Shown here in pieces: positions 2,736 to 25,431 of a DNA stretch of 64,000 bases. A program made the position numbers and the translations under genes. The stretch is from an uncultured Gammaproteobacteria bacterium (lineage in GTDB: Bacteria > Patescibacteriota > Microgenomatia > Woykebacterales > RBG-16-39-9b). The stretch covers positions 260,187 to 324,186 of the forward strand of contig CAYHXX010000001.1 in assembly GCA_964360785.1 (NCBI GenBank), in the 5' to 3' direction. Position 1 is the first letter of the stretch. Each line of letters starts with the position of its first letter. The notes beneath the pieces are model-generated. The model was not told where the DNA came from. It saw only the letters and a program-made list of their open reading frames with translations, and ran no database searches.

Positions 2736-5659
2736 GAAGCTTCTTTACCAACTAAAGGTTTTATCGAAAGCTCTGCTCCCACACGAATTTCAGTTGCGAT
2801 AGTTTCTTTCTTGATATAGTCAGTAAATTGCTCTGGCCAGTTTGGAGCTTCAACCCTAATCTTGTCACTTACTGAGAGCCCAGCCTCTTTTCGTTTTTCT
2901 TGAATTGCACGCACCAAATCTCTTGCTTCTCCTTCGGCTTTTAGTTCTGGAGTAATTTCTGTATCCAAGACAACTTGTTCTTTGCTTTTTTTGTCGTTAA
3001 GGACTTCTTTAACATTTACTTCAGCTGCAATTACCTTCTCGATTTCACTCGGAAGTGGGTCTGAATTGTAGGTTATTTTCTGTAAAGGCTGGCGCACTTT
3101 TAGATTTGCTTCTTTTCTCAAAGCGTGTGCTTCACTTGAAATTAAAACTGCCCTCTGCATCTGGTCGATCAATGCTTCATCAACAAGAAACTTTGTCTCT
3201 GGCCAGGTTTGTAGATGGACAGATTCTTCATCTGTAAGGTTTGTAAACATTTCCTCTGTCATAAACGGAATCATTGGTGAAAGTATCTTGGAGAGATCAA
3301 CCAAAACCAGCCAGAGAGTTTGATAAGCAGCGCTCTTATCTGCTCCATTCTCAACTGCTGGGCCCACCCGATCTCTAATCCGGCGGACATACCAGTTTGA
3401 AAGGTCATCAACCACAAACTTTTCAGCAAGGGCTATAGATTCTGCAGATTTAAAAGCTGACAAATTATTTTCAATATTGATAATTGTTTCCGAAAGCCTT
3501 GAAAGAATATAGCGATCAAGTACATTTTGAGGATCAAACGGGTCTTTTGATGGCTCCCAACCATCGACTCGTGCGTAATTCACCAAAAAACTATAAACAT
3601 TCCAGAGACGGATATGAAAATAACGTCGAACTTCATCCGCAATATGATAACCAAAACTGACATTGTTCTCCGGATTGGATCTGAGGTAGAGCCAACGCAT
3701 AACGTCGACTCCCATTTTGTCTGCTGCTTCTTCAAACCAAATCGCATTGCCTTTTGACTTGTGCATTTCTTCACCCTTTTCGTCACGCACACTTCCGTGT
3801 CCCAACAAGGTTTTGAAAGGCGCAACGCCCGCCAAGGCCGATCCCATCGCAATCAGCGAATAAAACCAATTTTTGAATTGTCCGGGGAAAGATTCAGTAA
3901 TAAAATCAGCTGGGAACCAATCCTCCCAATATTTTTTGTCCTCGAAATATTTTAGTGTTGAGAAAGGAACTATCCCCGCATCGAGCCACGGGTTACCAAC
4001 ATCGGGGATACGGCTTGAGATTTCTCCACACTTGGAACATTTAATTTTCAGTTGGTCGACCCACGGGCGATGTGGAGAGTTGCCTTCAAATTCTGCCCAA
4101 CCTTCAATTGCTTTTTCCTTGAGCTCTTCTTTTGAACCAATGACGTCAAAATTGCCGCACTTTACACACTCCCAAATTGGTAGGGCCAAACCCCAATAAC
4201 GCTTTTTACTGATCAACCAATCGTGCAAATTGTTAAGCCAATCAAGTTCTCGATCATAACCCCATTTTGGGATCCAATTTACCTTTTTGATCGACTCTTT
4301 CATCAACTCCCGGTAGGTTTTCTTTTTGCTCGGGTCTTCACGATCAACGGCGATATACCATTCATCGACAACTCGCCAAACCAACTCCGTCTTACAGCGC
4401 CAACAAGTCGGATAGCGGTGTTTGTAGTTTTCAGTCTTAAATAGGAATTTTCCATTGTCCTTACTTTCCAGATATTCGATTATTAATTCCGGATGTTTCT
4501 TGGCATTTTGTCCGGAAAACTCACCAAAACCTTCAATATAGTTTGCCGCCTCATCAATAAGCTCTATCAAGGGAAGCTCTTGTTCTTTGTGAAGTTTAAA
4601 GTCTTCCTCTCCAGCACCTGGAGCAATGTGAACCAATCCAGTACCTTCTTCTGAAGTCACCAAGTCTTCTGCCGCAAGCACACAGTGAAAATTCTTTCCC
4701 TTTACTTCTGAAACGATTGGGAAAGTATCAAAGGCAGCAGTATATTCCCAATCCAACATTTCCTTACCTTTGATTGATTTTGATGGCTTTGCCTCCGTCC
4801 CAATCACTACCGCCACTCTTTCTCTCATAATCCAAAGCTTGTCCTCTCCGATATTTATTAATTCGTAAGTCTCGTTGGGATTTACAGCAACAGAAATGTT
4901 TCCCGGAATTGTCCAGGGTGTAGTTGTCCAAACCAGCAGGTACTCGTTTGGCCGATCAACCAAAGGCAATTTAAAATAAACAGCTTTGTGAACAATCTCC
5001 TTATACTCCTCAGTCAAAATCTCGTGTTGGGAAAGGGCAGTTCCACAGCGTGGACACCAAGGCACGCTATCGCGTCCCTTGTAGAGCCAACCTTTTTCAT
5101 GAACAGTTTTTAGATAGTGCCAGATCGAGTAATTGTTTTCGTCTGAGGAAGTGTGATAAGAATTGTCCCAATCCATAAAGTAACCAAGGCGCTTGGATTG
5201 GTCTGTCTGAACTCCTGAATATTTATTGACACGGTCTTTACAAAGATTTACAAATTTTGCAATTGATTCAAAAACATTCCCAGGAACCAAGTTTTCGATA
5301 TCTTTCTTTGTATGAAGTTCAAGTTCTTTTTCAACTTCGACTTCAACCCAAAGACCTTGTTCATCAAAACCATTTTGGAAGCGTTGCTTGTGGCCTTTGA
5401 GGTTAAAGAATCTTTGCCAAAGATCTTTATAAGTTCGACCCCAAGCATGATGAACACCCATAGGATTGTTCGCAGTGATCGGTCCATCAATAAAAGAGAA
5501 TCGCTTTTCAGAATTCTCATTCTTTTTTAGATATTTTTCTACTAGTGAGCTTTTTTGCCACTGCTGTAGTAGACTTTTCTCCATTTCGGGAAAATCAATC
5601 TTCGGTGAGACTTCTTTAAACATCGGGGTAATTAAACCAAAAAAGGAGTTTTTTAACAA
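2732..5659 (-). CDS. ileS: Isoleucine--tRNA ligase
   Basis: 975 aa class I aaRS with an HHAWGRT (HIGH-like) motif, a KSKGN (KMSKS-like) motif, editing-domain similarity and a C-terminal Zn-ribbon. The real start is probably the internal ATG at about 5623 (MFKEVSPKIDFPEMEK...), because the ORF-track start is a TTG. Confidence 0.9.
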   Translation of the reverse strand: MLKNSFFGLITPMFKEVSPKIDFPEMEKSLLQQWQKSSLVEKYLKKNENSEKRFSFIDGPITANNPMGVHHAWGRTYKDLWQRFFNLKGHKQRFQNGFDEQGLWVEVEVEKELELHTKKDIENLVPGNVFESIAKFVNLCKDRVNKYSGVQTDQSKRLGYFMDWDNSYHTSSDENNYSIWHYLKTVHEKGWLYKGRDSVPWCPRCGTALSQHEILTEEYKEIVHKAVYFKLPLVDRPNEYLLVWTTTPWTIPGNISVAVNPNETYELINIGEDKLWIMRERVAVVIGTEAKPSKSIKGKEMLDWEYTAAFDTFPIVSEVKGKNFHCVLAAEDLVTSEEGTGLVHIAPGAGEEDFKLHKEQELPLIELIDEAANYIEGFGEFSGQNAKKHPELIIEYLESKDNGKFLFKTENYKHRYPTCWRCKTELVWRVVDEWYIAVDREDPSKKKTYRELMKESIKKVNWIPKWGYDRELDWLNNLHDWLISKKRYWGLALPIWECVKCGNFDVIGSKEELKEKAIEGWAEFEGNSPHRPWVDQLKIKCSKCGEISSRIPDVGNPWLDAGIVPFSTLKYFEDKKYWEDWFPADFITESFPGQFKNWFYSLIAMGSALAGVAPFKTLLGHGSVRDEKGEEMHKSKGNAIWFEEAADKMGVDVMRWLYLRSNPENNVSFGYHIADEVRRYFHIRLWNVYSFLVNYARVDGWEPSKDPFDPQNVLDRYILSRLSETIINIENNLSAFKSAESIALAEKFVVDDLSNWYVRRIRDRVGPAVENGADKSAAYQTLWLVLVDLSKILSPMIPFMTEEMFTNLTDEESVHLQTWPETKFLVDEALIDQMQRAVLISSEAHALRKEANLKVRQPLQKITYNSDPLPSEIEKVIAAEVNVKEVLNDKKSKEQVVLDTEITPELKAEGEARDLVRAIQEKRKEAGLSVSDKIRVEAPNWPEQFTDYIKKETIATEIRVGAELSIKPLVGKEAS

Positions 5660-8268: not shown

Positions 8269-9156
8269 TTAGTTCGATAATTTTATTGAAGCGATAATTG
8301 TTTCTGCTGTTTTTACTTCCGATAGGTTAAAGTACTCTGTTGGACTTAGTTTTTGGTAGGGGGAATCATCGGGATAACGTCCATGAAAACGCGCGCCCTT
8401 ATAAACATCAAAGAAAACTCCGCTCAATTCACCGAATACCGTATCTTCGTATAACAGACATCCTTCCCCGTTGTCCCCCAGCTTAGGATAGTCATTAATA
8501 TGGTTCAGCTGAATTTCCTTTCTCTGAAAATTTACACCTCTGCTCCTCAAAGACCCTCCCGAAACAGACCATTCCACAACGCTAATTTTATTACCACTTT
8601 CGGTTGTAAGTCCGATTGGTTTTATGCCATATACATTTACCTTGAATACATAGTCATTATTAGTACTATCCACGTTTTCCCCACAACCGCCACCCAAATC
8701 ACCGATTTCTTCGTTATCAACAAAATTTAAGAAAAAGCCATTTGGGCTTTTGACCACTACATAACCCAAACTTGATGGTGTTTTGGCTACATTATTTATG
8801 GTCCAATTGGTTGGATACTTAAAACTCATTCCATTTGAAGCACTGTAAGTTTTCCAATTCGAAGGGATCACAAAAGAGCTTGCCTGCTTGGCAGAAGAAC
8901 TAGCTGTTTTTTCGAGTTCTTTCTTGGCTTGTTCTAGTTTTTCAGCTGGTTTTATTGCCACAATTAAAATCACAAAAAGTATTGGCAGGATAAAAAACAA
9001 TGCTCCACAGCCGATCATTAGTTTTAGAAACAACGGCATACCTTTCTTCGGAACTGTAGTTGGAACTGGCGGTTGGGTAGTTCCAGGAATGGCTGGGACC
9101 CAAACAGCTTGTTCAGTTGTTTGAGGATTTACTGGTGCTGCATTTTGAGTATCCAT
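8269..9156 (-). CDS. Hypothetical N-terminally anchored surface protein. It has a proline-rich N-terminus and a single TM helix, and is an ectodomain paralog of the TFKFL family.
   Basis: 295 aa. The N-terminal 70 aa are nearly identical to the adjacent 9169..9723 gene (EQAVWVPAxPGxTQPPVPTxxPKKGMPLFLKLMIGCG). The ectodomain begins with the motif NWKTYSASNGMSFKYPTNW, which is shared with the other family members. Confidence 0.5.
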   Translation of the reverse strand: MDTQNAAPVNPQTTEQAVWVPAIPGTTQPPVPTTVPKKGMPLFLKLMIGCGALFFILPILFVILIVAIKPAEKLEQAKKELEKTASSSAKQASSFVIPSNWKTYSASNGMSFKYPTNWTINNVAKTPSSLGYVVVKSPNGFFLNFVDNEEIGDLGGGCGENVDSTNNDYVFKVNVYGIKPIGLTTESGNKISVVEWSVSGGSLRSRGVNFQRKEIQLNHINDYPKLGDNGEGCLLYEDTVFGELSGVFFDVYKGARFHGRYPDDSPYQKLSPTEYFNLSEVKTAETIIASIKLSN

Positions 9157-9168
9157 ATATTTTCTTGA

Positions 9169-9723
9169 CTACTGGCAAGTTGTTTTGCCTTCGCCAACCG
9201 CACTAACCACTCCTACCGTTGAGTCCCAACTGATTATCTTACCGCTTTGATCAGTATAGATACAGATTTTAGTATTTGCAGAATCAGCTAAGTATGTTGT
9301 TTCGACTAAAGCTACTGAACTCTGATATTTACTACTTAGCAGGTAGTTCTTATCCCCACAACCATTTGTGGTAGAAAATATCTGTTTGGCTGGGGTACCT
9401 TTTGCTTTTTCTGCTGTTACACAGTTATTAACTGATTCTGCAACTGAACGCAATGCTGCCTGAGAGGACCTTTCTTTAGCTTCATTGATTTTTGCAGCAG
9501 GGTTGATTGCAACAATAACTATCATGATCAAAATAAAAGGCACCCCAAAAGCAGCTATACAACCGCAGCCAATCATGAGTTTCAGAAATAGGGGCATACC
9601 TTTTTTTGGCATGGCTGTTGGAACTGGCGGTTGAGTCGATCCAGGAGTGGCTGGAACCCAAACTGCTTGCTCTACTGGTTGTTGTGGCTGTACAGGAACT
9701 GGATTTGTGTTCTGCTCGTCCAT
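9169..9723 (-). CDS. Hypothetical membrane-anchored protein; tandem paralog of 8269..9156
   Basis: 184 aa. It has the same N-terminal Pro-rich segment and TM helix as the downstream gene, followed by a different C-terminal domain. Confidence 0.5.
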   Translation of the reverse strand: MDEQNTNPVPVQPQQPVEQAVWVPATPGSTQPPVPTAMPKKGMPLFLKLMIGCGCIAAFGVPFILIMIVIVAINPAAKINEAKERSSQAALRSVAESVNNCVTAEKAKGTPAKQIFSTTNGCGDKNYLLSSKYQSSVALVETTYLADSANTKICIYTDQSGKIISWDSTVGVVSAVGEGKTTCQ

Positions 9724-9750
9724 AAATTCTTAATTTATACGTCTGCTTAT

Positions 9751-10065
9751 TTATTTGGCACTAGTTGTAGAGGACTTTGTTACTGCTTTGGTTGCTAGCT
9801 TTACCGCTGCATCGGAAGCTGATTTTCTTGTCGTTGTTATTTCACTCTCCAAGGTATTGACTCTACCTTCGAGTCTTTGTAAAGCAATCCACATCAAACC
9901 CAAGATTAACATTGTTGCGGTTAAAATCATGCCTACGGCGGCGAATACTTTGGTTGGGTCAAATTGGGTACGATCGTCACTCTTGGCAAGTAGCACTGGT
10001 TTTAGTTTATCCACATCAGGATCTTGGATCAGTGGAGGAGGACTTTGGACAGCTTGTTCGGGCAT
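9751..10065 (-). CDS. Small membrane protein; an N-terminal-module-only member of the MPE(Q/E)...KVFAAVG family
   Basis: 104 aa beginning MPEQAVQ, followed by a KVFAAVGMILT TM helix and a Ser/Thr/Lys-rich tail ending ...TTSAK. It has no ectodomain. Confidence 0.4.
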   Translation of the reverse strand: MPEQAVQSPPPLIQDPDVDKLKPVLLAKSDDRTQFDPTKVFAAVGMILTATMLILGLMWIALQRLEGRVNTLESEITTTRKSASDAAVKLATKAVTKSSTTSAK

Positions 10066-10115
10066 AGGTAAATTATAGAAGAAAATTTAGGTTCTAGTCA
10101 AATATCAATTACTCA

Positions 10116-11648
10116 TTACTTACAGATCTTTAGCTTTGTTCCGTCAGGAAGCAAAAAAGTTTTTGTTTCTACCCTCTCACTTGGACAGTTTATCTCCTCA
10201 CCATTTCTGATCAGTAATAAATCTGCTTCTTGCGAGTTTGAAACAAACCTAAGCTGCCCCTTTTGGGCGTAAAAAGACAGCGCGGACTTGTTAAACCAAA
10301 TAGTATCCAAACCCTCAAAAGCAAAGCTAGAGTTGGGCGTTTTTTTAATATACTCAATAGCCTCTACCAAATACCAGTTTTCTCTTGTCGGAGGACCAAT
10401 CAAATAACCGTTTTGTGCAAACAAAACAAGTTTATTTTTCTCATTCAAATCTACTATTACATTCTTTGGTAAGAATGACAATCCAAAAGAAACGGCTAAA
10501 AAAGTTAAAATAGAGTAGCCAATTAAGAGAATCGAAAGTACCAGTCTTTGTTTTTCTTTCAGGAAATTTAACCAAAAAGTACTCACAACAGCAACTGCTG
10601 AAAGTATTGGTAAAGTATAACGCGCATCCTTGTTTCGAAGGAAAGTGAAGATTAAAACTGCTCCAAAGATAAACGTGAGTAGATAAAGATTCTTTCTCAA
10701 ATTTATAGCATCGCGTTTATAATAAAGGAAAAACAGGCCTGTTAAGAAAAACAAAACCGGTACAAGATAAAGTTGAGAGTTAATTAAATTGAAGAAATAA
10801 TACAAATTTGACTCTAGACTTCCGACTAATGGATCGCCTTCCTTAATACCAGATTGCAGACTTGCAACAACATCAATTCTCAGGTTCCGCAAATTACTCA
10901 AATACCAAAAACCGCTAACCAAATAGGCAACTAGTCCTGAAAAAATAGCATTGCGAACCCTAAATAGCTCCCTCTTCTTATTAATAACTGATCTAAGAGT
11001 TAAAAATAATGCCGTAAAAAGCGGTAGGATCATAAACAGTAAAAAAGTCCATTTTGTCAGTAGTCCAAGTCCAAAAACAATTCCAAAAACTATGGATCTC
11101 TTCTCCGAAGAAAATTCTCGGGTTTTAATCAATAAAACTAGTGCAAGAGCAACCATCGCTGACAGTGGTGCATCTATCTGAAACTCTTTAAATTGAGAAA
11201 CGAACATTGGTGTAGCCAGAAGGAAAACGGTCGCTAACAAACCAACACTTTTACTCCAAAATTCTTTACCTAGTTCGTAAGTAGAGTAGCTTAGTATTAA
11301 AAGAAAAGTAAAATTACTCAAAATCGCAGTTGGAATTGAAAAGCCAAACAAGGAAAGGTAAATTGACGCATTCCAATAAACTAGCGGCGGATAAAAACGG
11401 TAAGTAAATATATATTCAAAAAGCTGACTCAGATTAAAACGGTTGAAGTAAGTCAGACTATTTGAAAGATGAGTTGCCATGTCCCAATGCGGAGGTCGAG
11501 TTTCGCTGTGAATCCAAATCTGGTTTGAGAAAACAATTGCAGTAACAATCAAGAAGATTAGAGAATAGTTTCTCCAATCGGTAAATAGAAGGTTAAACTT
11601 GGAAAAGATTTGAAATTGCTGATTTGTTGAAGTTCTTGCTTTCTTCAC
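10116..11648 (-). CDS. GT-C fold membrane glycosyltransferase (ArnT/PMT_2-like, polyprenyl-phosphate-sugar dependent)
   Basis: 510 aa with about 12 predicted TM helices and an N-terminal loop carrying SETR..HWD acidic residues like the ArnT/PMT family. A C-terminal soluble domain is present. Confidence 0.5.
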   Translation of the reverse strand: MKKARTSTNQQFQIFSKFNLLFTDWRNYSLIFLIVTAIVFSNQIWIHSETRPPHWDMATHLSNSLTYFNRFNLSQLFEYIFTYRFYPPLVYWNASIYLSLFGFSIPTAILSNFTFLLILSYSTYELGKEFWSKSVGLLATVFLLATPMFVSQFKEFQIDAPLSAMVALALVLLIKTREFSSEKRSIVFGIVFGLGLLTKWTFLLFMILPLFTALFLTLRSVINKKRELFRVRNAIFSGLVAYLVSGFWYLSNLRNLRIDVVASLQSGIKEGDPLVGSLESNLYYFFNLINSQLYLVPVLFFLTGLFFLYYKRDAINLRKNLYLLTFIFGAVLIFTFLRNKDARYTLPILSAVAVVSTFWLNFLKEKQRLVLSILLIGYSILTFLAVSFGLSFLPKNVIVDLNEKNKLVLFAQNGYLIGPPTRENWYLVEAIEYIKKTPNSSFAFEGLDTIWFNKSALSFYAQKGQLRFVSNSQEADLLLIRNGEEINCPSERVETKTFLLPDGTKLKICK

Positions 11649-11654
11649 TTTTGG

Positions 11655-12725
11655 TTAGCGTTGACGCATAAAGGCTGGCACGTCATACTCATCTTCCGCT
11701 TCTTCCGAAGCTGGTTCAATTATCTCGGGGAGCGAAGCGGCCGCATCTCGAGCTTCGGTCGAGCGAAGTTTTTCTTCAGAAAACCCAGTGGCAATCACCG
11801 TGATCTTTACTTGATCCATCATCGACTCATCAATTGCAGCTCCAAAAATTATGTTGGCATCAGCATCGGCTGCTGCAGATATAATTTTGGCAGCCTCATC
11901 CACCTCATACATAGAGATATCTGGTCCGCCAGTAACATTGAACAAGACCCCTTTAGCGCCCTCAATAGAAAGTTCCAAAAGCGGTGAGGAGATTGCCGAA
12001 CGGGCGGCAGAGGCAGCACGGCCTTCACCTGTACCAAAACCAATACCCATCAAGGCGCTTCCAGCGTTGGTCATAATACTGCGAACATCGGCAAAATCAA
12101 CATTGATCAATCCTGGCAAAACTATAATATCGGAAATTCCCTGAACACCTTGTCCCAAAACACTGTCAGCAACCTTAAAAGCTTCGAGCAAACTCATTTT
12201 TTTATCAACAACATCCAAAAGTCTTTGGTTGGGAATTACAATCATGGTGTCGACTTTGTCTTTAAGACCATCGACACCCTCTTCGGCAACTACCCGACGA
12301 TGGGCACCTTCAAAAGAGAACGGTTTGGTGACGACTGCAACTGTGAGAGCCCCACTCTTGCGGGCAATATCAGCAATTACTGGACAACCACCAGTTCCAG
12401 TACCACCGCCCATACCACCAGTGACAAAGACCATATCGGCATCGGCTACTACTGCTTGGAGTTTTTCAAGAGATTCCTCGGCTGCTTTGCGACCAATTTC
12501 TGGATCACCACCACTCCCTAAACCACGTGTAAGTTGATCACCGATTTGTACTTTTGTTGGAGCCTGGCACGTCAAAAGCGCCTGGGCATCAGAATTGACA
12601 CCAATAAAATCAACGCCTTGTATTTGTTGCAAGTTGATCATAGAGTTGAGAGCGTTACAACCAGCCCCACCAACTCCGACAACTTTTATCTTTGCAAATC
12701 TGTTTACTTCAGGTTTGATAAGCAT
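11655..12725 (-). CDS. ftsZ: Cell division GTPase FtsZ
   Basis: Carries the GGGTGTG tubulin signature and the N-terminal GVGGAGCNA motif. 356 aa. Confidence 0.95.
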   Translation of the reverse strand: MLIKPEVNRFAKIKVVGVGGAGCNALNSMINLQQIQGVDFIGVNSDAQALLTCQAPTKVQIGDQLTRGLGSGGDPEIGRKAAEESLEKLQAVVADADMVFVTGGMGGGTGTGGCPVIADIARKSGALTVAVVTKPFSFEGAHRRVVAEEGVDGLKDKVDTMIVIPNQRLLDVVDKKMSLLEAFKVADSVLGQGVQGISDIIVLPGLINVDFADVRSIMTNAGSALMGIGFGTGEGRAASAARSAISSPLLELSIEGAKGVLFNVTGGPDISMYEVDEAAKIISAAADADANIIFGAAIDESMMDQVKITVIATGFSEEKLRSTEARDAAASLPEIIEPASEEAEDEYDVPAFMRQR

Positions 12726-12755
12726 ACGAAAACGTTCCTAATTTCTAGTGCACCG

Positions 12756-12784
12756 AGAATACACCAAGTATACAAAAGTGTCAA
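12756..12784 (-). promoter_or_regulatory. Candidate ftsZ-proximal promoter TTGACA-17-TATTCT on the minus strand
   Basis: In the ftsA-ftsZ intergenic region the minus strand reads TTGACAc-ttttgtatacttggtg-TATTCT, about 30 nt upstream of the ftsZ ATG. Confidence 0.25.
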
Positions 12785-12806
12785 ATTTTTTACGCTATAA
12801 TTTTTC

Positions 12807-14093
12807 CTAGGGGATAAAAGACTTTACCCAATTGAATGCTTTTTTGAAGATATCGAGAAATGCTCCTGTCCGAACTATGGGCAAACTCATACCAGCTGAG
12901 TTCGGGCTAAGTTTCTCACCGTACAAAATTGTACCAATCAGAGCAGCGTATGCGGGAGAGGAAATTTCTTCAATCAGGCCAGTGACGCCAGTCGGATAAG
13001 CAACTCGCACTGGCATTCTCAAGACTTCTTTTCCAATTTGTGTAACTCCAACCGTTTCGGCTCCTCCACCAGTAACTACTACACCTGCTGGCAGAAGACC
13101 TGCGTAACCTGAGCGCTTTATTTCCATACCAATTAGAGTAAAGATTTCAGTCAATCGTGGTTTGATGATCCCATCGGTCAAAGTCTTTTTGGAAAGAGCT
13201 CCTAAGTCATCGGTGAGCTCAAGTTTTGATAGGTCCATACTATCGCGACGTTTAGAATCCCTCTCCTCTTCGTCTTCGACAGAAACTTCATGCTTTTTCT
13301 TTTCAATTCGGGAAAGTTCCAATTTTATCTTTTCGGCATCGTCGAGTGAACCACGAATCCCAATAGCTAAATCGTTGGTGATATTTTTACCACCGATTGG
13401 TATCACAACTGAGTGGACAATCGCCCCATCAACAAAAAGTGTCAGATCTGTTGTTCCGCCTCCCATATCCACAAGTGCAACCCCAAGCTCTTTTTCAGTA
13501 TCAGTCAAAGTACTTACCGACGAAGCTAGTCCTGAAAAAACCAACCCTTCAACATCTACACCAACTTGCTGAACGCATTTGGCGAGATTCCGCATTGCAG
13601 TGGTAGCACCAGTGACAATATGAGTTTCAACCTCCAACCTGATACCAGTCATCCCGATTGGATCTTTGATACCTTCTTGGGAATCAACAATAAAATCTCG
13701 AGGGATCACGTGTATTACTTCGCGAGACGAAGGTATCGAAATTGCTCGAGCAGCCTCCGTAACTCGACGTACATCCTCTTCTGTAATTTCATTTTCTCCA
13801 CCGGCTACGGCCACAACCCCACGAGAATTTACACTACTGATGTGAGAACCACCAACAACAATAAAGGCTGATGAAACCGAAACCCCCGCCATTCGTTCTG
13901 CGGATTCAACCCCTTCACCGATAGCTTTTACAGCCTCGTCGATATCAACTATTTGTCCTTTGCGAATACCACGAGAAGCCACATTGGAAACACCAATCAC
14001 AGTAAGAGTATCTTCTTTTGAAATATTGGCTATTAACGTTGCTATTTTTGAGGATCCGACATCTATTCCAACAAGAATTCGTTCTTTTGACAC
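12807..14093 (-). CDS. ftsA: Cell division protein FtsA (actin-like ATPase)
   Basis: 428 aa beginning ILVGIDVGSSKI (phosphate-1 motif) with an FtsA/MreB fold. It lies immediately upstream of ftsZ. Confidence 0.9.
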   Translation of the reverse strand: MSKERILVGIDVGSSKIATLIANISKEDTLTVIGVSNVASRGIRKGQIVDIDEAVKAIGEGVESAERMAGVSVSSAFIVVGGSHISSVNSRGVVAVAGGENEITEEDVRRVTEAARAISIPSSREVIHVIPRDFIVDSQEGIKDPIGMTGIRLEVETHIVTGATTAMRNLAKCVQQVGVDVEGLVFSGLASSVSTLTDTEKELGVALVDMGGGTTDLTLFVDGAIVHSVVIPIGGKNITNDLAIGIRGSLDDAEKIKLELSRIEKKKHEVSVEDEEERDSKRRDSMDLSKLELTDDLGALSKKTLTDGIIKPRLTEIFTLIGMEIKRSGYAGLLPAGVVVTGGGAETVGVTQIGKEVLRMPVRVAYPTGVTGLIEEISSPAYAALIGTILYGEKLSPNSAGMSLPIVRTGAFLDIFKKAFNWVKSFIP

Positions 14094-14138
14094 GTTGTTT
14101 AACCTTTGGGTCGCTAGGCAGTTAAGGTTCTAAAGAAC

Positions 14139-14615
14139 CTAGTATTCGACCACGATTTTTTCAAAGCGAAAATCAACCTTTTTTATGGCTTTATTATCTA
14201 TTTTAGCTTTAGTTAAAAGAGTTTGTAAAGTACTGACCTGATCAGTCAAGCTTTTTTTGCTAGCAAAGATTATTGTCGGACCCTTTTTCGCTTTGACCAA
14301 TATATCCCCCTCAGTGGTATTTGTCAGAGATTCAATCTCAAAAACCTTGTCGTTATCAATAAGTTGTTTTAGTTCCTCTTCTTTTGAACTTGCTTTTATC
14401 TTTACCTCTTTTCTGACTTCGGGTTTGATACGAGTAAGGACTTCGGAAAATATTTTTTCATAAGAAAAGTTTGAGGATAAAAGTATCCATACTACGGTAC
14501 CGAGCAAAACTGAAATTATCAGCAAGATACTTACCCAGCGAAGTATCTGATCACGCCAGGCATGTTTTTTCTTGACAGTAAAAACTGGGACGGAAGTTTT
14601 GTTTGCGGTTGCCAT
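14139..14615 (-). CDS. Short FtsQ/DivIB-like cell division protein (single TM plus periplasmic domain)
   Basis: 158 aa with an N-terminal TM helix, located between murG and ftsA, the canonical ftsQ slot. It is shorter than typical FtsQ. Confidence 0.45.
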   Translation of the reverse strand: MATANKTSVPVFTVKKKHAWRDQILRWVSILLIISVLLGTVVWILLSSNFSYEKIFSEVLTRIKPEVRKEVKIKASSKEEELKQLIDNDKVFEIESLTNTTEGDILVKAKKGPTIIFASKKSLTDQVSTLQTLLTKAKIDNKAIKKVDFRFEKIVVEY

Positions 14616-14620
14616 GGAAG

Positions 14621-15721
14621 CTATTTTAAGATTTCAAAAACTTGCTGTGCCAAGAGTGCGGCTGCATTGAGATTTAGACTTTTTCGAGCTTTCTTGGCAT
14701 TGTCGTAATACTTTTTGTAATTATCCGCAATTAGATTTATCGCTGCTAACAACCTTTTTGGAGTTAATCTTTCTTCTGGAAGTATTATGGCGGCGTCTAT
14801 TTTTTCCATCAATTGAGCATTCTTTGTCTGCTCATCCCCTGCAGCTATCGCCAGAGGAACAAAAACCGCAGGTACTCCAAGAGCCATAGTCTCAAAAACA
14901 GTATTTGCCCCTGAGCGCCCAACCAAAATACTCGTTTTTGAAAACACATCCACCGATTCTTGTGTGTCAAACCACTTGGCCAGCTGATAGCGACTCCGAA
15001 GCCTGGATGAGAGTTGACTAGCAAAGGCGGTCAGGGTCTCAAAATCTTTATTTACCTCCGAACTACCGCTTTGGTGAATCACTTGGTACTTCTCAAGCAA
15101 GTCCTTCAGGATTTCCAGAACCATCTCATTGATTATATGAGCACCTTGATTTCCGCCGGTTATATAAATTGTTGGTCTGGAAACTCGCTTCTTTTCAAGG
15201 TTTAATAAATCTGCTCTGATAGGATTACCAACCAAAACTGTTTTATTCTTTGGAAAATGCTCTAGTGATTCCTCCCAGGAAACCGCAATTTTTTTCGAAA
15301 ACCTTGCTATCAACTTGTTTGAAAGACCGCTTCTGAGAGTTTGCTCGTGAGTAATTATTGGTATCCCCAGAATCCAACCAGCAGCAACTACAGGCGCAGC
15401 TACATAGCTACCGAATGACAGTATTGCTTGTGGTCGCTCTCGCGAAAGTATACCCAGCGCCTGGATCAAACCAAGTGGTACTTTGGCCAAGCTTCCCAAT
15501 GTATAACGCGTAAACCGTCTCTGCAATCTCCCTGGTCGGATAGCATAAAATTTTATCCCCAAATTTGGTACAACGATAGATTCAGCTGAAGGAGCTCTGT
15601 CACCTTCGGTGGCGTGAGCTCTGCCGATAAAAATTATTTCGATTTCAGGATTTTTTCGCAGTTCATCTATTGTCGCCAGAGCGGGAGTAAGATGACCACC
15701 TGTAACTACAATCTTCTGCAT
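14621..15721 (-). CDS. murG: Undecaprenyldiphospho-muramoylpentapeptide beta-N-acetylglucosaminyltransferase
   Basis: 366 aa GT28 protein beginning IVVTGGHLTPALA, sitting in dcw context. Confidence 0.85.
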   Translation of the reverse strand: MQKIVVTGGHLTPALATIDELRKNPEIEIIFIGRAHATEGDRAPSAESIVVPNLGIKFYAIRPGRLQRRFTRYTLGSLAKVPLGLIQALGILSRERPQAILSFGSYVAAPVVAAGWILGIPIITHEQTLRSGLSNKLIARFSKKIAVSWEESLEHFPKNKTVLVGNPIRADLLNLEKKRVSRPTIYITGGNQGAHIINEMVLEILKDLLEKYQVIHQSGSSEVNKDFETLTAFASQLSSRLRSRYQLAKWFDTQESVDVFSKTSILVGRSGANTVFETMALGVPAVFVPLAIAAGDEQTKNAQLMEKIDAAIILPEERLTPKRLLAAINLIADNYKKYYDNAKKARKSLNLNAAALLAQQVFEILK

Positions 15722-15750
15722 ACAATAATAGATTATACTACAGGAAAATT

Positions 15751-16911
15751 TTAATTTTGCTTGGTTTCGTTCGCAGTGTGTTTAGAAAGTTGGAGAAGTA
15801 CTGCAACTGCTAGAAATATTGAGATTAAGGAACTACCACCATAAGATATAAAGGGAAGTGGTACACCCGTCAAAGGTAGCATTGCTAGCATACCAGAAAG
15901 GTTAATAAAAACCTGTAAACCAATCCAAATACCAATCCCAGAAGCTAGCAACTGTCCGAATCTATCCGGCAGATGAGAAGCAATTTTAAAGGCGCGGAAG
16001 ACTACCAAAAACAGTAGACAAATAAATATCAGAGAACCAAAAAAACCCAGTTCATTACCAATAACGGCAAAGATTGAGTCTGTCGTGATCTCAGGGATAT
16101 ACCCATACTTTTGTCGTGATTGTCCTAACCCTACTCCAAACCAACCACCAGACCCCAACGCGATCAAGATTTGGTTAATATGATAGGCAGCTCCTTGGGG
16201 ATCAGAACCTGGATTTAAAAAAGTTAAGAATCTTTCTCTGCGATAACCAGATGAAAAAATAAACCCCAGGATTGAAAGTAAACCTGCAGGTATCAGGAGA
16301 AAAAAGTGTGCTAACGGGGCGCCAGAGAGGAAGTACACCAATAAACCAGTCAGACTAATGATGATTGCTGTTCCCAGATCACGCTGGAGTATCAAGACCC
16401 CAAGTAAGAATCCAGTCAAAATGACAAATGGCCAGAATTTCACTTTTTTTGATAAGAATGCAGACAAATATATAATGTACCCAAGTTTCGCAAATTCTGA
16501 TGGCTGTATGGAAAAAAGCTGCCCCACCCCAATCCAACGTTGCGCTCCGTAGATATTAAGACCAATACCAGGCACAAATACTGCTATCAGCAATACAATC
16601 GATCCCAACATTATTACCGGTGCTAACTTCTCCCAAATCTTATAAGGGAACAAATAAACCAAAAAAGCAACAGCCGCGCCTCCAACTGCCCAGATAATTT
16701 GCAGCCTTGCAAGTCGTGTCGGATCACCAAAATCTCTTTCTGAAGTAACTGGTGAGGCATTGTAAATCATCAGCAATCCAAACAACACCAAAAAAACTGT
16801 TGCGGTTAACAGTAAGAAATCTGGTCGGTGTGCTTGCGTTTTTTGGGTATGCTGAATATGTTTTGCTTCCATGTCTAATGAAATTAAAGTATAACTCAAT
16901 TCTGAAAACAT
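15751..16911 (-). CDS. ftsW: SEDS-family lipid II flippase/polymerase FtsW
   Basis: 386 aa polytopic protein carrying the SEDS motif and placed in the ftsW position between murD and murG. Confidence 0.8.
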   Translation of the reverse strand: MFSELSYTLISLDMEAKHIQHTQKTQAHRPDFLLLTATVFLVLFGLLMIYNASPVTSERDFGDPTRLARLQIIWAVGGAAVAFLVYLFPYKIWEKLAPVIMLGSIVLLIAVFVPGIGLNIYGAQRWIGVGQLFSIQPSEFAKLGYIIYLSAFLSKKVKFWPFVILTGFLLGVLILQRDLGTAIIISLTGLLVYFLSGAPLAHFFLLIPAGLLSILGFIFSSGYRRERFLTFLNPGSDPQGAAYHINQILIALGSGGWFGVGLGQSRQKYGYIPEITTDSIFAVIGNELGFFGSLIFICLLFLVVFRAFKIASHLPDRFGQLLASGIGIWIGLQVFINLSGMLAMLPLTGVPLPFISYGGSSLISIFLAVAVLLQLSKHTANETKQN

Positions 16912-16957
16912 TAGTTGGGAGGTAAAAGAAAGATAATTGACTTTGATCTAGTTTTCT

Positions 16958-17443
16958 TTGATAATGATTTTAATGCCTTCAGAAGACGCTGCCAATAAAG
17001 ATTCCAACCTCAAGATCATTGCATTTGTTGCTATTTTTCTCATTATTGCTCTAGTTGCAGTGCTTTTTTACTATCAAAGTTTCCAAAACGGAAACAAAAC
17101 AACAAGCAAAACCACCACTTCCAATACCAATGATTGGGTCACTTACACTAGCAAAACCCACGGATACTCGATCAGCTACCCAAAGTCCTGGCAAAAAGTG
17201 GTAGCGGCAACTTCAACTGACTCCAGTGGTCCAGAAATAATTTTGCTCAACTTGACCGACAATGAAGGTCGGGACAACGGCAAGCCAAATATCATCATCA
17301 CCGCAGGAGCCCCGGCGGATGTCTGTAGCGAAATTAAAGATCAAACTTGCAGGGAGCTAGGAAACAATGTTTTTGCCTCAATTCAGGCAAATGGCGATCA
17401 AGCCATCATTGACCAGGTTCTCAATACTTTTAAAACTAATTAA
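16958..17443 (+). CDS. Hypothetical anchored or secreted protein; a member of the TFK(F/T) ectodomain family
   Basis: 161 aa. The likely start is the internal MPSEDA at about 16973. A TM helix is followed by a Thr-rich linker (TTSKTTTSNTN), the ectodomain motif DWVTYTSKTHGYSISYPKSW and the C-terminus NTFKTN. Confidence 0.45.
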   Translation: MIMILMPSEDAANKDSNLKIIAFVAIFLIIALVAVLFYYQSFQNGNKTTSKTTTSNTNDWVTYTSKTHGYSISYPKSWQKVVAATSTDSSGPEIILLNLTDNEGRDNGKPNIIITAGAPADVCSEIKDQTCRELGNNVFASIQANGDQAIIDQVLNTFKTN

Positions 17444-17451
17444 ATAAACTT

Positions 17452-17679
17452 ATGCCAGAACAAAATGTCCAAGTAACCCCAAGTGCACCAAAATTCAACA
17501 CCCACAAGGTGTTTGCTGCCATTGGGATCATTTTAACAGTAGCAATTATTGCAGTAGCTGCTATTTGGTATTTTACCGATAGTAGCAGCAGCTCTGATGA
17601 TGAAAGTGGTACTACAGTGAAGGTTTCAACAAGTTCAGCCAAACCTGCAACTAAGTCTGCGACTAGTGCTGCGAAATAA
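17452..17679 (+). CDS. Small membrane protein; an N-terminal-module-only family member
   Basis: 75 aa beginning MPEQNVQ, with an HKVFAAIGIILT TM helix and an S-rich tail ending SAAK. It ends where the ectodomain would begin. Confidence 0.4.
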   Translation: MPEQNVQVTPSAPKFNTHKVFAAIGIILTVAIIAVAAIWYFTDSSSSSDDESGTTVKVSTSSAKPATKSATSAAK

Positions 17680-17684
17680 ACAAA

Positions 17685-18446
17685 ATGCTCGAGCAACCTG
17701 TCCCAAACCCACTAGCCAAAAACCCAAACATCCACACACATAAAGTCTTTGCCGCAGTTGGATTAATTCTCATTGGAGTAATCCTTGCCGTAGCTGGAAT
17801 TTGGTGGTATGTGAACAACCAATCGGAAACGACAACCTTAGAGACTGCAGATACTTCAACCAAAGTCTCAACCTCTTCAGCCAAGAAAACTGCAGAATCA
17901 GTTGAAAAAACAGTGGAGGATGAAATTGCTGAGTGGAAAACTTTTACTAATTCTAGTTTTAAATATTCTCTCAAGTATCCCGAGGGTATAAATCCTTTCT
18001 CAAATTCGCCTATGGGCGGGGATACTGCTGATGTTTCAGGAGATGTGATATTTACCAATGACCCAAAGGTTACAACTGAGACACGAGGCGTGGAGGGAAC
18101 GATTGGGAAAGATTTCTATCTGCTACAGATTTACCTGATAGATAAGAACGGAAATTCTTACTACACGGGTAAGACTTTAGCAGAAATCGCTCAAGGAGAT
18201 TACAACAAAAATAAAACTAGCGCGCAGAGTATCACAGAACTAACCCAAACCACAGTTGGGGGTAAAAGTGCGTATTCTTTTCAAAAGACCAAGGCCACTG
18301 CTTTTGATTATCTTGCCGGTGGTTGGTTGCTGACCCAAGAAACCATAAAGATACTTGAAGTCGAGAATAACGGATCGATATATTACCTGATTTATCGTCC
18401 AAACGACACAATTGAAGAAATCCTTACGACCTTCAAATTCCTCTAG
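17685..18446 (+). CDS. Hypothetical N-terminally anchored surface protein of the TFKFL family
   Basis: 253 aa with the N-terminus MLEQPVPNPLAKNPNIHTHKVFAAVGLILIG, the linker TTTLETADTSTKVSTSSAKK, an ectodomain starting EWKTFTNSSFKYSLKYPEG, and the C-terminus ILTTFKFL. Confidence 0.5.
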   Translation: MLEQPVPNPLAKNPNIHTHKVFAAVGLILIGVILAVAGIWWYVNNQSETTTLETADTSTKVSTSSAKKTAESVEKTVEDEIAEWKTFTNSSFKYSLKYPEGINPFSNSPMGGDTADVSGDVIFTNDPKVTTETRGVEGTIGKDFYLLQIYLIDKNGNSYYTGKTLAEIAQGDYNKNKTSAQSITELTQTTVGGKSAYSFQKTKATAFDYLAGGWLLTQETIKILEVENNGSIYYLIYRPNDTIEEILTTFKFL

Positions 18447-20853: not shown

Positions 20854-20880
20854 GGTCAGATAATTCTACCAAATTTAAAG

Positions 20881-22083: not shown

Positions 22084-22108
22084 GCGCGAATATTATACAC
22101 AAAAAAGT

Positions 22109-23227: not shown

Positions 23228-23249
23228 TTTTCAATTATACCAGAGGAAT

Positions 23250-24050
23250 TTAGAGGAATTTGAAGGTTGTTACAATGGTGTCTAAAACTGAAGTGTCCAA
23301 ATCTTGCTGATTACCTGGAAAGGACTGTATAAGGTAAAAAACCCTTTTGTCCTTAACAGCTAGTATCTCATACTTATTTGTATTCCACTCCCCCTTCCAA
23401 GTTGATCGCATAGCGTTTTGGTGATCTAGCAGAATATAGTCTAGTACTGAAACACCCTCTTTACTAATCCTCCTATCTTCAGCAACTTCATCGAAGGTGT
23501 CATAGGATTCTAGGCTGGCGGTATCATAAGTTATACTCACATCCGTTCCGCTGAGGTAGTAATCTCCAGACACATTTGGCTCTTGGTTAAATTTATAGTC
23601 ACCACTTAATAACCTTATACCGTTTTTATACTCATTTCCAACTGTGAAGTCAGGTGGATAGCTAAAACTAAAATACATTGTTTTGTATTCTTTCCAATTT
23701 GATGAATCCAATTTTTCTGACGAAACATTTCCCTTTTTACCAAAAATTTCTGAGGTTTTATAGTTCTTGGAATTTGCTGAGGAAGTTGAGACTTTGGTTG
23801 TGGTAATTTCATCTTCGGGTATTTTGCTTCCAGACTGGTTCTCGACGTACCACCAAATACCAGCTGTTGCAACGATTGCACCGATCAGAATCAGTCCAAC
23901 TGAAGCAAAAACTTTATGTGTATATACGTTTGGATTTTTGGCTAGTGGGTTTGGTACAGGTTTATCAAGTAGAGATGGAGAGTTTGATGGTGGAATTGCA
24001 ATCGGTGTACTTGCAGATTCTTCAGGCATTAAGATAATTATAACTCGCAA
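23250..24050 (-). CDS. Hypothetical N-terminally anchored surface protein of the TFKFL family
   Basis: The likely start is the internal MPEESAST at about 24029. It has PVPNPLAKNPNVYTHKVFASVGLILIG, the linker TTTKVSTSSANS, the ectodomain motif NWKEYKTMYFSFSYPPDF and the C-terminus IVTTFKFL. Confidence 0.5.
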   Translation of the reverse strand: MRVIIILMPEESASTPIAIPPSNSPSLLDKPVPNPLAKNPNVYTHKVFASVGLILIGAIVATAGIWWYVENQSGSKIPEDEITTTKVSTSSANSKNYKTSEIFGKKGNVSSEKLDSSNWKEYKTMYFSFSYPPDFTVGNEYKNGIRLLSGDYKFNQEPNVSGDYYLSGTDVSITYDTASLESYDTFDEVAEDRRISKEGVSVLDYILLDHQNAMRSTWKGEWNTNKYEILAVKDKRVFYLIQSFPGNQQDLDTSVLDTIVTTFKFL

Positions 24051-24130
24051 GAACTACCGAAGCAAGATATAACCAGAAAGGTTATCGATTATTGTTAATA
24101 ATTGTCAATTCAAACCTGAGTGTCAGACAC

Positions 24131-24505
24131 TTAGGCGTGTTTTTCGATCCAAGAAGCGATTTTTTCGATAGTTGGTTTTGAATTCTCAACCCACAAAGCA
24201 AAATCAACGATATCCCTGTTTGTCGCGGTGAATTTTCTTTTATTTAAGATGAGAAATTCAATCATGGAAATAGTTGCTGTTCTTTTGTTACCGTCAACAA
24301 ACATGTGATTAAGCAGCAACGAGTGAACTAAAGCAGCTGCTTTTATCTCAAGGGTTGGATAAAGATCTTTACCAACAAAAGTTTGCTGAGGCCGCATTAC
24401 CGCCGACTCCAAAAGACCAAGATCACGTAAACCTTGAGATCCTCCGGTTACTTCAACTATCTCGTAGTGAATCTGGATGACGTTCTCTGGAGTTAAATAT
24501 TTCAT
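24131..24505 (-). CDS. doc: Doc (death-on-curing) Fic-fold toxin
   Basis: 124 aa with the Doc variant Fic motif HMFVDGNKRTA. It overlaps the upstream antitoxin gene by 4 nt. Confidence 0.8.
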   Translation of the reverse strand: MKYLTPENVIQIHYEIVEVTGGSQGLRDLGLLESAVMRPQQTFVGKDLYPTLEIKAAALVHSLLLNHMFVDGNKRTATISMIEFLILNKRKFTATNRDIVDFALWVENSKPTIEKIASWIEKHA

Positions 24506-24705
24506 TTCGAAGCAAGCTCTTCGAGGGCGCCGCGGTACTCTTTGATCAAGTTTTGTGTCAAGTCGTGAATTTTTGGATCGGCGTTGAAAATAGGTTCAAT
24601 TGTGAATGACAAGGAATCACCAACTTTAAGGTTTTTTGCTTTGATTTCTGATTTTGGGATTGTTACGGCAAGCGAGTTGCCGACTTTGATAACTTTTTGA
24701 ATCAT
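24502..24705 (-). CDS. AbrB/MazE-fold (SpoVT_AbrB) antitoxin partner of Doc
   Basis: 67 aa containing KVGNSLAVTIPK, a swapped-hairpin AbrB/MazE signature. It is translationally coupled to doc. Confidence 0.7.
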   Translation of the reverse strand: MIQKVIKVGNSLAVTIPKSEIKAKNLKVGDSLSFTIEPIFNADPKIHDLTQNLIKEYRGALEELASK

Positions 24706-24714
24706 GTTAGTACA

Positions 24715-24762: not shown

Positions 24763-25431
24763 TTAAAGGAATTTGAAGGTGGAAAGGATTTGATCTAGCT
24801 CTTTGGAATAATTGGTTCCAGAAGTACTTCCATCATACTCAATAAGGAAAGCATCACTTGATATCTTAATAATATAGCTCACTTTATTTTCGTTATCCTT
24901 AGTAAACTTAAGAGCGGTTTTACCATCGATAACTTTAGTACCAGATTTTGTAAAGTTTTTTTCAAGTATTACGATCTCAGAATCATAATTGCTGTTTAAT
25001 GTTGCTAAACGGAAACCAATGTGGTCATCAATGCCACAAGCTGATTTATCAGGTTTGGTTGGAAAGAACCAAACATTATCTTGCTCACAGACAGTAAAAC
25101 CCCAACTCTTAGGTAGCTTTACGGTAAAATTTTCAGTAAAATCTATACTTTGATCACTTGTAGAATATGTTCTCCAATCAGAAGGTATTTCTGAAGAAGT
25201 TCCTGGTTTTACCGGATTATCAATATTCGAACTTTTGGGAACTCCTTTTAGGAAATCTCCAAGTGGACCGCGATAAATAAAGGCCAATATCCCTCCAACA
25301 ATTATTAACGCGACTATTGCACAGAGAACTACAACTCCAGAAAGAGATTTTGGTTTGGACACATCTTGCGGAGTAGGCGTAGTATTTGTTTGTGGGTTTT
25401 CGACTGGAGCACTTGCAGGTTCTTCAGGCAT
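24763..25431 (-). CDS. Hypothetical N-terminally anchored surface protein of the TFKFL family
   Basis: 222 aa beginning MPEEPASAP, with a TM helix, the ectodomain motif DWRTYSTSDQSIDFTENFTVKLPKSW and the C-terminus ILSTFKFL. Confidence 0.5.
   Translation of the reverse strand: MPEEPASAPVENPQTNTTPTPQDVSKPKSLSGVVVLCAIVALIIVGGILAFIYRGPLGDFLKGVPKSSNIDNPVKPGTSSEIPSDWRTYSTSDQSIDFTENFTVKLPKSWGFTVCEQDNVWFFPTKPDKSACGIDDHIGFRLATLNSNYDSEIVILEKNFTKSGTKVIDGKTALKFTKDNENKVSYIIKISSDAFLIEYDGSTSGTNYSKELDQILSTFKFL

Follow-up and report, generated by a model that had tools for sequence, protein, structure and literature searches.

Two small genes for candidate anchor-only membrane proteins, related to a PsbP-fold surface family, in a bacterial division and cell wall cluster

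The two short genes and the anchor module at the locus

Analysis of a 64,000-nucleotide stretch of contig CAYHXX010000001.1 (hereafter, the window) was focused on two short open reading frames (ORFs) for small single-pass membrane proteins, one of 104 aa (9751..10065, minus strand) and one of 75 aa (17452..17679, plus strand). An original prediction had described them as truncated, N-terminal-only copies of a surface-protein family. The ORF list contained both, each with an ATG start, and the products showed the described MPEQ start, KVFAA(V/I)G at the beginning of a single, strongly hydrophobic helix, and a tail rich in S, T, A, and K, which ends in ...SAK or ...SAAK before the stop codon. 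Both genes lie in the dcw cluster (for division and cell wall), which spans approximately 8.2–34.7 kb of the window on the minus strand. Its gene order is MraZ, RsmH, an FtsL/DivIC-like 112-aa gene, FtsI, MurE, NTP-transferase, MurC, MurB, and MurA, followed by Alr, MurF, MraY, MurD, FtsW, MurG, an FtsQ-like 158-aa gene, FtsA, and FtsZ. Genes of membrane-anchored proteins are dispersed within the cluster (eight listed, 8269–25431). Contigs identical to the window were present in the 0.1-µm fraction of the groundwater metagenome from Hainich well H52, and the genes are also found on a 497-kb NCBI contig. The relatives used for comparison (L010, L012, L096, and others) represent old divergences, with FtsZ 90–98% and MurD 63–74% identical and with synonymous sites saturated.

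The N-terminal anchor module of the family comprises three elements: a cytoplasmic motif PxPLxx(D/N)P(D/N), a transmembrane helix (H/T)KVFAAxGxIL, and an extracytoplasmic juxtamembrane stretch of the KVSTSSAK-ATKSAT type. In the long proteins, the first reads PNPLAKNPN and the last KVSTSSAK, and a conserved KDETADWKTY marks the start of the ectodomain. A six-frame scan of the whole window detected the P.PL..[DN]P[DN] motif only in the genes of 253, 259, and 104 aa and the KVSTSSAK-type motif only in those of 75, 253, and 259 aa. The KVFAA helix was present in three ORFs of the window only (75, 104, and 253 aa), the 259-aa paralogue having KVFAS. Each of the short proteins therefore keeps two of the three module elements, and the pair is different in each.

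Two full-length paralogues carry the complete arrangement. The product of the 253-aa gene W_253 (17685..18446, plus strand) consists of the PNPLAKNPN motif, a KVFAAVG helix, KVSTSSAK, and an ectodomain of PsbP fold, and it terminates in TTFKFL. The 3′ ends of this gene and of murD share an overlap of 4 nt. In a Foldseek search with its AlphaFold2 (AF2) model, PsbP gave the top matches (E ~1e-5), and LpqN, Apa, MTC28, and Mog1 were matched as well. The 259-aa gene W_259 (23250..24029, minus strand) adjoins alr. The N-terminal modules of these two genes form an inverted repeat (I1, 17688–17884 vs. 23773–23969) with 75% nucleotide identity over 197 nt and an exact run of 20 nt. Among the long proteins at one locus, overall identity was 34–38%, yet the anchors were nearly identical. 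The Pfam threshold for PsbP_2 was passed by the 161-aa and 295-aa proteins described below.

The 104-aa protein starts with a cytoplasmic PPPLIQDPD, the counterpart of PNPLAKNPN in the long genes, followed by an insert of ~20 aa (VDKLKPVLLAKSDDRTQFDPT), the KVFAAVG helix, a heptad-like segment (LQRLEGRVNTLESEI), and the S/T/A/K tail. Neither the insert nor the post-helix segment occurs in the long genes. In the BLASTP comparison with W_253, the similarity covered the same helix region as that of the 75-aa ORF described below (E 4e-8). The AF2 model of the protein is one helix at residues 37–101, with a predicted local distance difference test score (pLDDT) above 90 in the transmembrane part. 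The heptad-like pattern LQxLExRVxxLE is kept in most 104-type members and is missing in P0053, P0080, and P0083. Some relatives of this type have no coiled coil and carry a 75-like ...VKVSTDSAKPATISATPSAN tail, which links both short families.

A sigma-70-type promoter was found upstream of the 104-aa gene at 10072..10101 on the minus strand (TTGACT-18 nt-TATAAT). It matches the consensus at 11 of 12 positions, was the joint best site in an 11-kb scan, and its −10 box ends 6 nt before the ATG. Both hexamers and a distance of 6–8 nt to the ATG are kept in L012, L094, L095, and L106; in L010, the hexamers are also kept, with a 26-nt insert after the −10 box. Since these boxes persist while the surrounding intergenic sequence and the synonymous sites are scrambled between the genomes, the 104-aa gene appears to possess a promoter of its own, whose spacing would give a leaderless mRNA.

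The position of the gene is also conserved. In L012, L094, L095, and L106, the 104-type gene directly follows ftsZ (11655..12725, minus strand, in the window). In the window and in L010, a gene of a PMT_2 (GT-C) glycosyltransferase (10116..11648, minus strand; Pfam PMT_2, E 1.7e-15) lies between the two. This gene is absent from the junction in the other four genomes and looks like a variable insertion into the dcw cluster.

The 75-aa protein consists of a short N-terminal tail, the KVFAAIG helix, and a TVKVSTSSAKPATKSAT tail. It matched residues 14–75 of W_253, through the helix and KVSTSSAK, with 48% identity over 65 aa (BLASTP, E 3e-15), and extends ~11 residues past KVSTSSAK. Its gene is the middle one of an operon of three. 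The first encodes a membrane-anchored PsbP_2-like protein (Pfam PsbP_2, E 2e-6, bit score 28.3, cut-off 27) and is listed with 161 aa from a TTG at 16958. A promoter-like site (TTGACT-17 nt-GATAAT) is located at 16937..16965 on the plus strand, 7 nt before the ATG at 16973. L010 and L012 keep both hexamers and also the TTTAATGCC start. The gene probably starts at this ATG (MPSED...), which would give a product of ~156 aa encoded at 16973..17443 on the plus strand. The last gene of the operon is W_253. In the window, the three genes are separated by 8 nt and 5 nt; in the relatives, the spacing lies between a 1-nt overlap and a gap of 7 nt. This spacing fits co-transcription with translational coupling.

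Every relative examined has an orthologue of the first gene upstream of its 75-type gene. The order of PsbP-like gene, 75-type gene, and long paralogue, located between ftsW and murD and on the strand opposite to them, is shared by the window, L010, L012, and L096, and the same order was found on the short contigs L102 and L105. A fusion of the 75-aa and 253-aa products by stop-codon read-through was also considered and rejected: the two genes are in different frames (17452 vs. 17685), and the fusion would carry two anchors.

The original description of both ORFs as truncated copies that stop where the ectodomain of the paralogues begins was confirmed, with some corrections. As an account of ancestry, it is apt for the 75-aa gene, which ends a few residues short of the KDETADWKTY position. 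It is too simple for the 104-aa gene, which, with its insert and LQRLEGRVNTLESEI segment, is not a simple truncation. Similarly, the statement that each lies directly upstream of a full-length or related paralogue holds for the 75-aa gene, with W_253 starting 5 nt after its stop codon. Downstream of the 104-aa gene, no true long paralogue is directly next; it is followed by a 184-aa gene (9169–9723, minus strand; no family match) and a 295-aa gene (8269–9156, minus strand; PsbP_2 domain above the Pfam threshold), both with a different N-terminal module.

These two downstream genes share that second module, ...EQAVWVPAxPGxTQPPVPT..PKKGMPLFLKLMIGCG, which forms a direct repeat (D1, 9005–9123 vs. 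9563–9681) with 79% nucleotide identity over 119 nt, and their C-terminal parts are unrelated. The pair is another instance of one anchor on different ectodomains. A further related surface protein of 222 aa (24763..25431, minus strand) starts with MPEE, ends with STFKFL, and has a different helix. In addition, alike acidic N-termini (MPEQ, MPEE, MPSE, MLEQ, MDEQ, and MDTQ) were observed at the starts 10065, 16973, 17452, 17685, 24029, 25431, 9723, and 9156, also among genes with otherwise unlike N-terminal modules, and at least two of these genes appear leaderless. A common origin of the outermost 5′ end could explain the similarity, as could a constraint that leaderless translation imposes.

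Conservation, selection, and ancestry of the short genes

A search of 5.8 billion protein clusters yielded 20 homologues of the 75-aa ORF, all of 67–85 aa (49–100% identity), and 16 homologues of the 104-aa ORF, all of 104–109 aa (60–93% identity). The original prediction had proposed conservation of the short ORFs in related genomes as a check; it was observed at this scale, with the position kept in several divergent relatives. A profile search of 1.84 billion cluster representatives retrieved further 104-type proteins of 94–109 aa with a PPPLIQ(D/E/N)P motif. In total, only 136 module-bearing proteins were recovered, with a bimodal length distribution: ~29 were short (54–123 aa), and the rest were mostly of 200–260 aa.

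Estimates of the ratio of nonsynonymous to synonymous substitution rates (dN/dS) were low for both genes. The value for the 104-aa gene was 0.087 between the window and L106 (dS 0.50), and that for the 75-aa gene was ~0.05 between the window and L105. Against more distant genomes, the proportion of nonsynonymous differences (pN) was 0.14–0.26, with the synonymous proportion (pS) saturated at 0.68–0.80; the ranges for the 75-aa gene were 0.23–0.26 and 0.68–0.75, respectively. Among the window, L010, and L012, the identity of the 104-aa protein was 69–77%, that of MurD 66–74%, and that of the FtsQ-like protein 53–61%. The 104-aa protein is therefore as conserved as MurD and more conserved than the FtsQ-like protein. 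In the alignments of both short families, the starts, helices, tails, and stop positions were kept, and the gaps preserved the reading frame.

Both short genes are real and old, evolve under purifying selection, hold fixed positions, and are homologous to the anchors of the long proteins. The conservation of length and position, together with the purifying selection, supports the proposal of stand-alone small membrane proteins, which was one of the options in the original prediction. We consider it probable that the two ORFs are genuine, selectively maintained genes of small single-pass membrane proteins that represent ancient anchor-only paralogues of the PsbP-fold surface family.

The relationship between the genes was recognizable mainly at the protein level. 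A profile–profile comparison of the two short families with hhalign gave a probability of 98.9% (E 2e-17), and the BLASTP values reported above made the homology of each to the long proteins clear. A nucleotide alignment with the 5′ ends of the long genes, also proposed originally, revealed weak similarity: identity in the MAFFT alignment was ~60%, the longest exact matches were 8–10 nt, and no repeats between short and long genes were detected in the window at a seed of 10. The identity of the helix core was 77–88% among 75-type orthologues, 62–85% among 104-type orthologues, and 31–69% between the types, so that sequences clustered by type and not by genome. Identity at third codon positions was near background in all short-versus-long comparisons. 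This clustering and the near-background third positions suggest that the anchor-only genes arose by ancient partial duplication before the genomes diverged and have not been homogenized with the long genes since.

The distribution of the families was also studied in better represented lineages. An FtsZ-anchored scan of GTDB species representatives gave 80 loci from Gottesmanbacteria, Levyibacteriota, Woesebacteria, and others, with FtsZ identity of at most 68%. The nearest were only 62–68% identical, which suggests that the host is a bacterium of the candidate phyla radiation (CPR) of Microgenomates type and from a poorly represented lineage. Hidden Markov model searches of all ORFs from those 80 loci found neither short family, and a scan of GTDB species representatives for the 104-type family gave no match; synteny in the nearest represented genomes was therefore unusable. 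A scan of JGI metagenomes contributed 5 loci only. With 136 representative clusters in total and none in the nearest GTDB representatives, the short families appear to be confined to a narrow CPR lineage. Comparison of the short proteins with Pfam, NCBIfam, and PDB sequences gave only sub-threshold matches (SRTM1, New_glue, FliL, and CrgA; E 0.001 or weaker). No description of these families was found in the literature on the divisome and dcw cluster of Patescibacteria, leaderless transcripts of CPR bacteria, and PsbP in Microgenomates.

Predicted topology and possible roles

According to the positive-inside rule, the short proteins would have a type-II topology, crossing the membrane once with the N-terminus inside and the C-terminus outside. 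The 75-aa protein has Lys and His before the helix and acidic residues after it. The same orientation is expected because the long homologues must expose the PsbP domain outside the cell. In relation to PsbP_2, PsbP, Mog1, and LpqN-type extracytoplasmic proteins (PF18933 and relatives), whose fold is found in the full-length paralogues, the short proteins share the N-terminal anchor of those paralogues. Unlike them, they stop before the domain and have neither the PsbP fold nor the STFKFL end.

Conservation of the helix, of the SAK/SAT-rich stretch, and of the cytoplasmic proline motif far exceeds that of the ectodomains. Anchors that stay nearly identical while ectodomains diverge point to a specific partner of the anchor itself. 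The short proteins probably act through the helix and the juxtamembrane segment. By these, they may dock to the same partner as the long paralogues, which would be a complex of envelope or division proteins in the membrane, or to the paralogues themselves, and the anchor-only proteins would then act as minimal tethers or as modulatory, microprotein-like versions. We infer a role as anchor-only partners of the envelope or division machinery, or as its modulators. The 75-aa protein retains the helix and the stretch; since its gene lies in the middle of the operon between two PsbP-like genes, it is probably co-produced with the flanking PsbP-like proteins. The 104-aa protein combines the motif, the helix, and a diverged tail with the insert and a predicted short outer coiled coil, and its gene would be transcribed from its own promoter, probably as a leaderless message.

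Small membrane proteins with regulatory functions are known in bacteria and include AcrZ, MgtS, SidA, and Blr. As in microProteins and small membrane modulators, the short proteins keep only the candidate interaction part of larger paralogues (the transmembrane helix and the juxtamembrane stretch) and are encoded beside them. The likeness is conceptual and not one of homology.

The S/T/A/K tail is probably a wall-facing stalk and may be O-glycosylated. It resembles acceptor regions for O-glycosylation, and in the window a PMT_2 enzyme gene adjoins the 104-aa gene. Apa and MTC28 of mycobacteria, both matched by W_253 in Foldseek, are secreted members of the PsbP-like group, and Apa is O-mannosylated by a PMT-family enzyme. 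Two other fates of the C-terminal region were considered. Use of the C-terminal lysine as an Lpp-like site of attachment to the wall was rejected, as the homologues do not end in a constant residue (K, E, R, Q, D, N, or H). Cleavage by a signal peptidase at SSA/K was considered unlikely, the site lying more than 20 residues beyond the helix.

Several observations weigh against the proposed role or restrict it. The function was deduced from gene context and motif conservation. The coiled coil can hardly be essential to the 104-type family, as judged from the sequences of the three members that do not have it. In L094 and some other relatives, no stand-alone 75-type gene was found, and the 75-type anchor is instead part of a full-length protein; part of the clade can therefore do without a stand-alone 75-aa form. 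The PMT_2 gene is adjacent in only two of the six genomes examined, so glycosylation is a weak lead. Finally, the absence of both families from the nearest GTDB representatives means that the roles are lineage-specific and not core.

A narrower alternative, which overlaps with the partner or modulator role, concerns the 104-aa protein only. It could be a lineage-specific component of the divisome, either a small bitopic protein resembling FtsB, DivIC, or FtsL or a tether linked to FtsZ or FtsA. The PPPLIQDP motif would contact FtsA or FtsZ, and the FtsL-like protein would be the pairing partner of the outer coiled coil. Its position directly after ftsZ in four relatives, with only the PMT_2 gene between in the window and L010, the strong conserved promoter of its own, and the layout of a cytoplasmic tail, a transmembrane helix, and a heptad-like segment make it the better division candidate of the two short proteins, and its conservation comparable with that of MurD is in line with such a role. 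FtsL, FtsB, and DivIC (DivIC PF04977, FtsL PF04999) are likewise dcw-encoded proteins of ~100 aa, and FtsL and DivIC also have a cytoplasmic N-terminal tail. In them, one transmembrane helix is directly followed by a leucine-zipper-like extracytoplasmic helix, a layout to which the heptad-like segment of most 104-type members may correspond. Moreover, the FtsL/DivIC-like 112-aa gene occupies the ftsL position (32982–33320), and no second protein of this kind was seen in the 64-kb window.

However, hmmscan of the 104-aa protein of the window and all 17 family members gave no DivIC or FtsL match at E values up to 1. The family likewise gave no match to FtsB and no relative in the PDB. The C-terminal beta region through which FtsB and DivIC bind FtsQ/DivIB is absent and is replaced by the S/T/A/K tail, the coiled coil is missing in some members, and the homology is to the anchors of surface proteins and not to known division proteins. 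The ftsL position is already held by a separate gene, and, as the window covers 64 kb only, a gene of the FtsB/DivIC type may be located elsewhere in the genome. We therefore regard the divisome assignment as possible but less likely than not.

A more speculative extension, to which we give somewhat less credit still, is that the 104-aa protein, or the PxPLxx(D/N)P(D/N)-KVFAAxG module in general, is an unrecognized lineage-specific membrane adaptor of the CPR division and cell wall machinery. The motif would dock to FtsA, FtsZ, or another dcw product, the helix and stalk would organize interchangeable PsbP-fold ectodomains at the division site, and the anchor-only proteins would be minimal or regulatory versions. 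If this were true, the repeated anchors would make the essential Alr-MurF-MraY-MurD block recurrently invertible.

Anchor recombination in relatives and the setting of the cluster

The original prediction had also proposed that the short ORFs serve as donor or acceptor cassettes, by which anchors and ectodomains would be shuffled through inversion or gene conversion between inverted anchor modules. Several loci of relatives were informative in this respect. On a 402-kb contig (L099, JGI 3300003890; 10001–16336), the Alr-MurF-MraY-MurD block is inverted relative to MurA, FtsW, and the rest of the cluster. The gene next to murA (P0169) is a chimera: its N-terminus is of the 259 type, and its 3′ end overlaps murD convergently by 4 nt, as is typical of the gene in the 253 position. 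The reciprocal gene upstream of alr (15553–16336, minus strand) is a decayed pseudogene of the long type. The arrangement looks like the expected outcome of recombination between the inverted anchors of the 259 and 253 positions.

A second chimera was found on a contig of 1.3 kb (L093, Logan SRR31239916; 1–1324), which carries a 161-like gene, a 242-aa chimeric gene (P0037), and then alr on the same strand. The first ~195 nt of P0037 match the 75-aa gene up to the SSAKP codons, and the rest encodes an ectodomain of the 259-position type. The 75-type part of the contig is 74% identical at the nucleotide level to 17241–17645 of the window. The chimera is the product expected of an inversion between 75-type and 259-type genes; no independent copy of it was found in the 5.8 billion clusters, and it reflects either a genuine inversion or a faulty assembly. 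L095 carries two long paralogues in inverted orientation, located 6 kb apart (3469–3728, minus strand, and 10001–10260, plus strand), that share ~88% nucleotide identity over ~100 nt of the helix and juxtamembrane region, with flanks of ~50% identity and different cytoplasmic N-termini and ectodomains. The shared stretch is a gene-conversion tract. In addition, P0047, P0054, and P0058 carry nearly identical 75-type anchors on unrelated ectodomains.

A separate observation was made on a Hainich H43 contig of coverage 2 (L100; 1–1496), which contains an L095-like 104-type gene, a 240-aa gene with a 75-type anchor, and, directly after these, a W_253-like gene. The product of the latter is 96% identical to the 253-aa protein of the window from approximately codon 11, and the switch point lies at the PNPLAKNPN codons. 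Recent transfer between lineages that occur together, or recombination between them, would account for it, and so would a chimeric assembly.

Systems of surface variation with silent cassettes or inversions are known, such as pilS/pilE of Neisseria, the R64 shufflon, and vsa/vsp of Mycoplasma. The likeness lies in partial copies beside full-length surface genes, inverted repeats that flank an invertible block, and chimeras in relatives. In contrast to those systems, the short genes are complete, with start codons of their own, selected at the protein level, and driven by an own promoter (104-aa gene) or as part of a promoter-driven operon (75-aa gene). In the window, tracts of identity between short and long genes are lacking: exact matches do not exceed 8–10 nt, and third positions are at background. 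No recombinase or invertase family was present in the Pfam calls across the dcw region, which covered the cluster only in the window's own contig and in the relatives. A single arrangement was seen in all assembled contigs of the population to which the window belongs. In L099, the reciprocal product is decayed, as expected of an accident rather than a switch, and the chimera of L093 is a singleton on a 1.3-kb contig.

It is thus improbable that the short ORFs are cassettes, and a working system in this genome finds no support. What remains of the proposal is that anchors have recombined in relatives over evolutionary time. There, they appear to have served as substrates of occasional homologous recombination rather than of a dedicated variation system, and the inversions look like rare evolutionary accidents. 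The 75-type anchor would be among the recombination sites only if the L093 contig is a correct assembly.

The interpretation of the short ORFs as decaying pseudogene remnants of partial duplications was rejected. Such an origin might be suggested by the similarity to only the first third of the long genes, the 75-aa ORF abutting a long paralogue, and the full-length proteins with a 75-type anchor in some relatives. However, length and stop position are kept in 36 homologues, dN/dS values of 0.05–0.09 are far below those of relaxed selection, the promoters are conserved, and the indels in the alignments keep the frame. L098 retains its 75-type gene although the neighboring downstream long gene has been lost. 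The short homologues are not gene-calling artifacts of fragments, as several are located on contigs of 36–105 kb. A true pseudogene of the family, the long-type gene in L099, looks quite different, with several stop codons and at least two frameshifts. An intact long gene in relatives with a frameshift in the window, which the original prediction had named as the mark of a plain pseudogene, was not found; at these positions the relatives hold ORFs of 67–85 and 104–109 aa.

Least credible of all, to the point of being negligible, is that the short ORFs are chance open frames or shadows of genes on the opposite strand: antisense ORFs do overlap them in the window (9755–10078, plus strand, 107 aa; 17436–17696, minus strand, 86 aa), but these frames carry 1–10 stops in every relative, where the sense frame is always open, and they are shadow ORFs open in this genome only. 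A third long antisense ORF (17663–18058, minus strand) was observed over the anchor-coding region.

The preferred reading is thus that of maintained genes for anchor-only membrane proteins. Other features of the surroundings were also recorded. The gene in the ftsL position (minus strand) has only a sub-threshold match to DivIC (E 1e-3), and the 158-aa gene in the ftsQ position (14139–14615, minus strand) has no Pfam match; therefore, the core divisome proteins of this lineage are highly divergent. A Fic/DOC-family gene of 124 aa (24131–24505, minus strand; Pfam E 3e-18) is located between two surface-protein paralogues and between murA and alr. The arrangement is repeated in L104, and in L103 a Doc homologue adjoins tandem paralogues. 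The G+C content of the window is ~0.41–0.45 over the first 44 kb and ~0.34–0.38 beyond ~44 kb (44000–64000). A scan of the window against Rfam at gathering thresholds gave no matches, and a tRNA scan detected none.

The short families are previously undescribed in the libraries and literature searched and are restricted to a lineage; they are not categorically new as a kind. They present a clear case of functional small proteins that derive from the anchor part of larger paralogues; annotation pipelines are prone to treat such proteins as mere fragments. Relatives show, in addition, that repeated anchors can invert an essential block of peptidoglycan-synthesis genes and create chimeric surface proteins. 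CPR bacteria (Patescibacteria) have reduced genomes, and the biology of their cell envelope and division is almost unknown. The lineage studied here inserts a PsbP-fold anchored family into the dcw cluster and maintains two tiny anchor-only derivatives of it, and these short genes are concrete candidates for lineage-specific factors of the envelope or of cell division.

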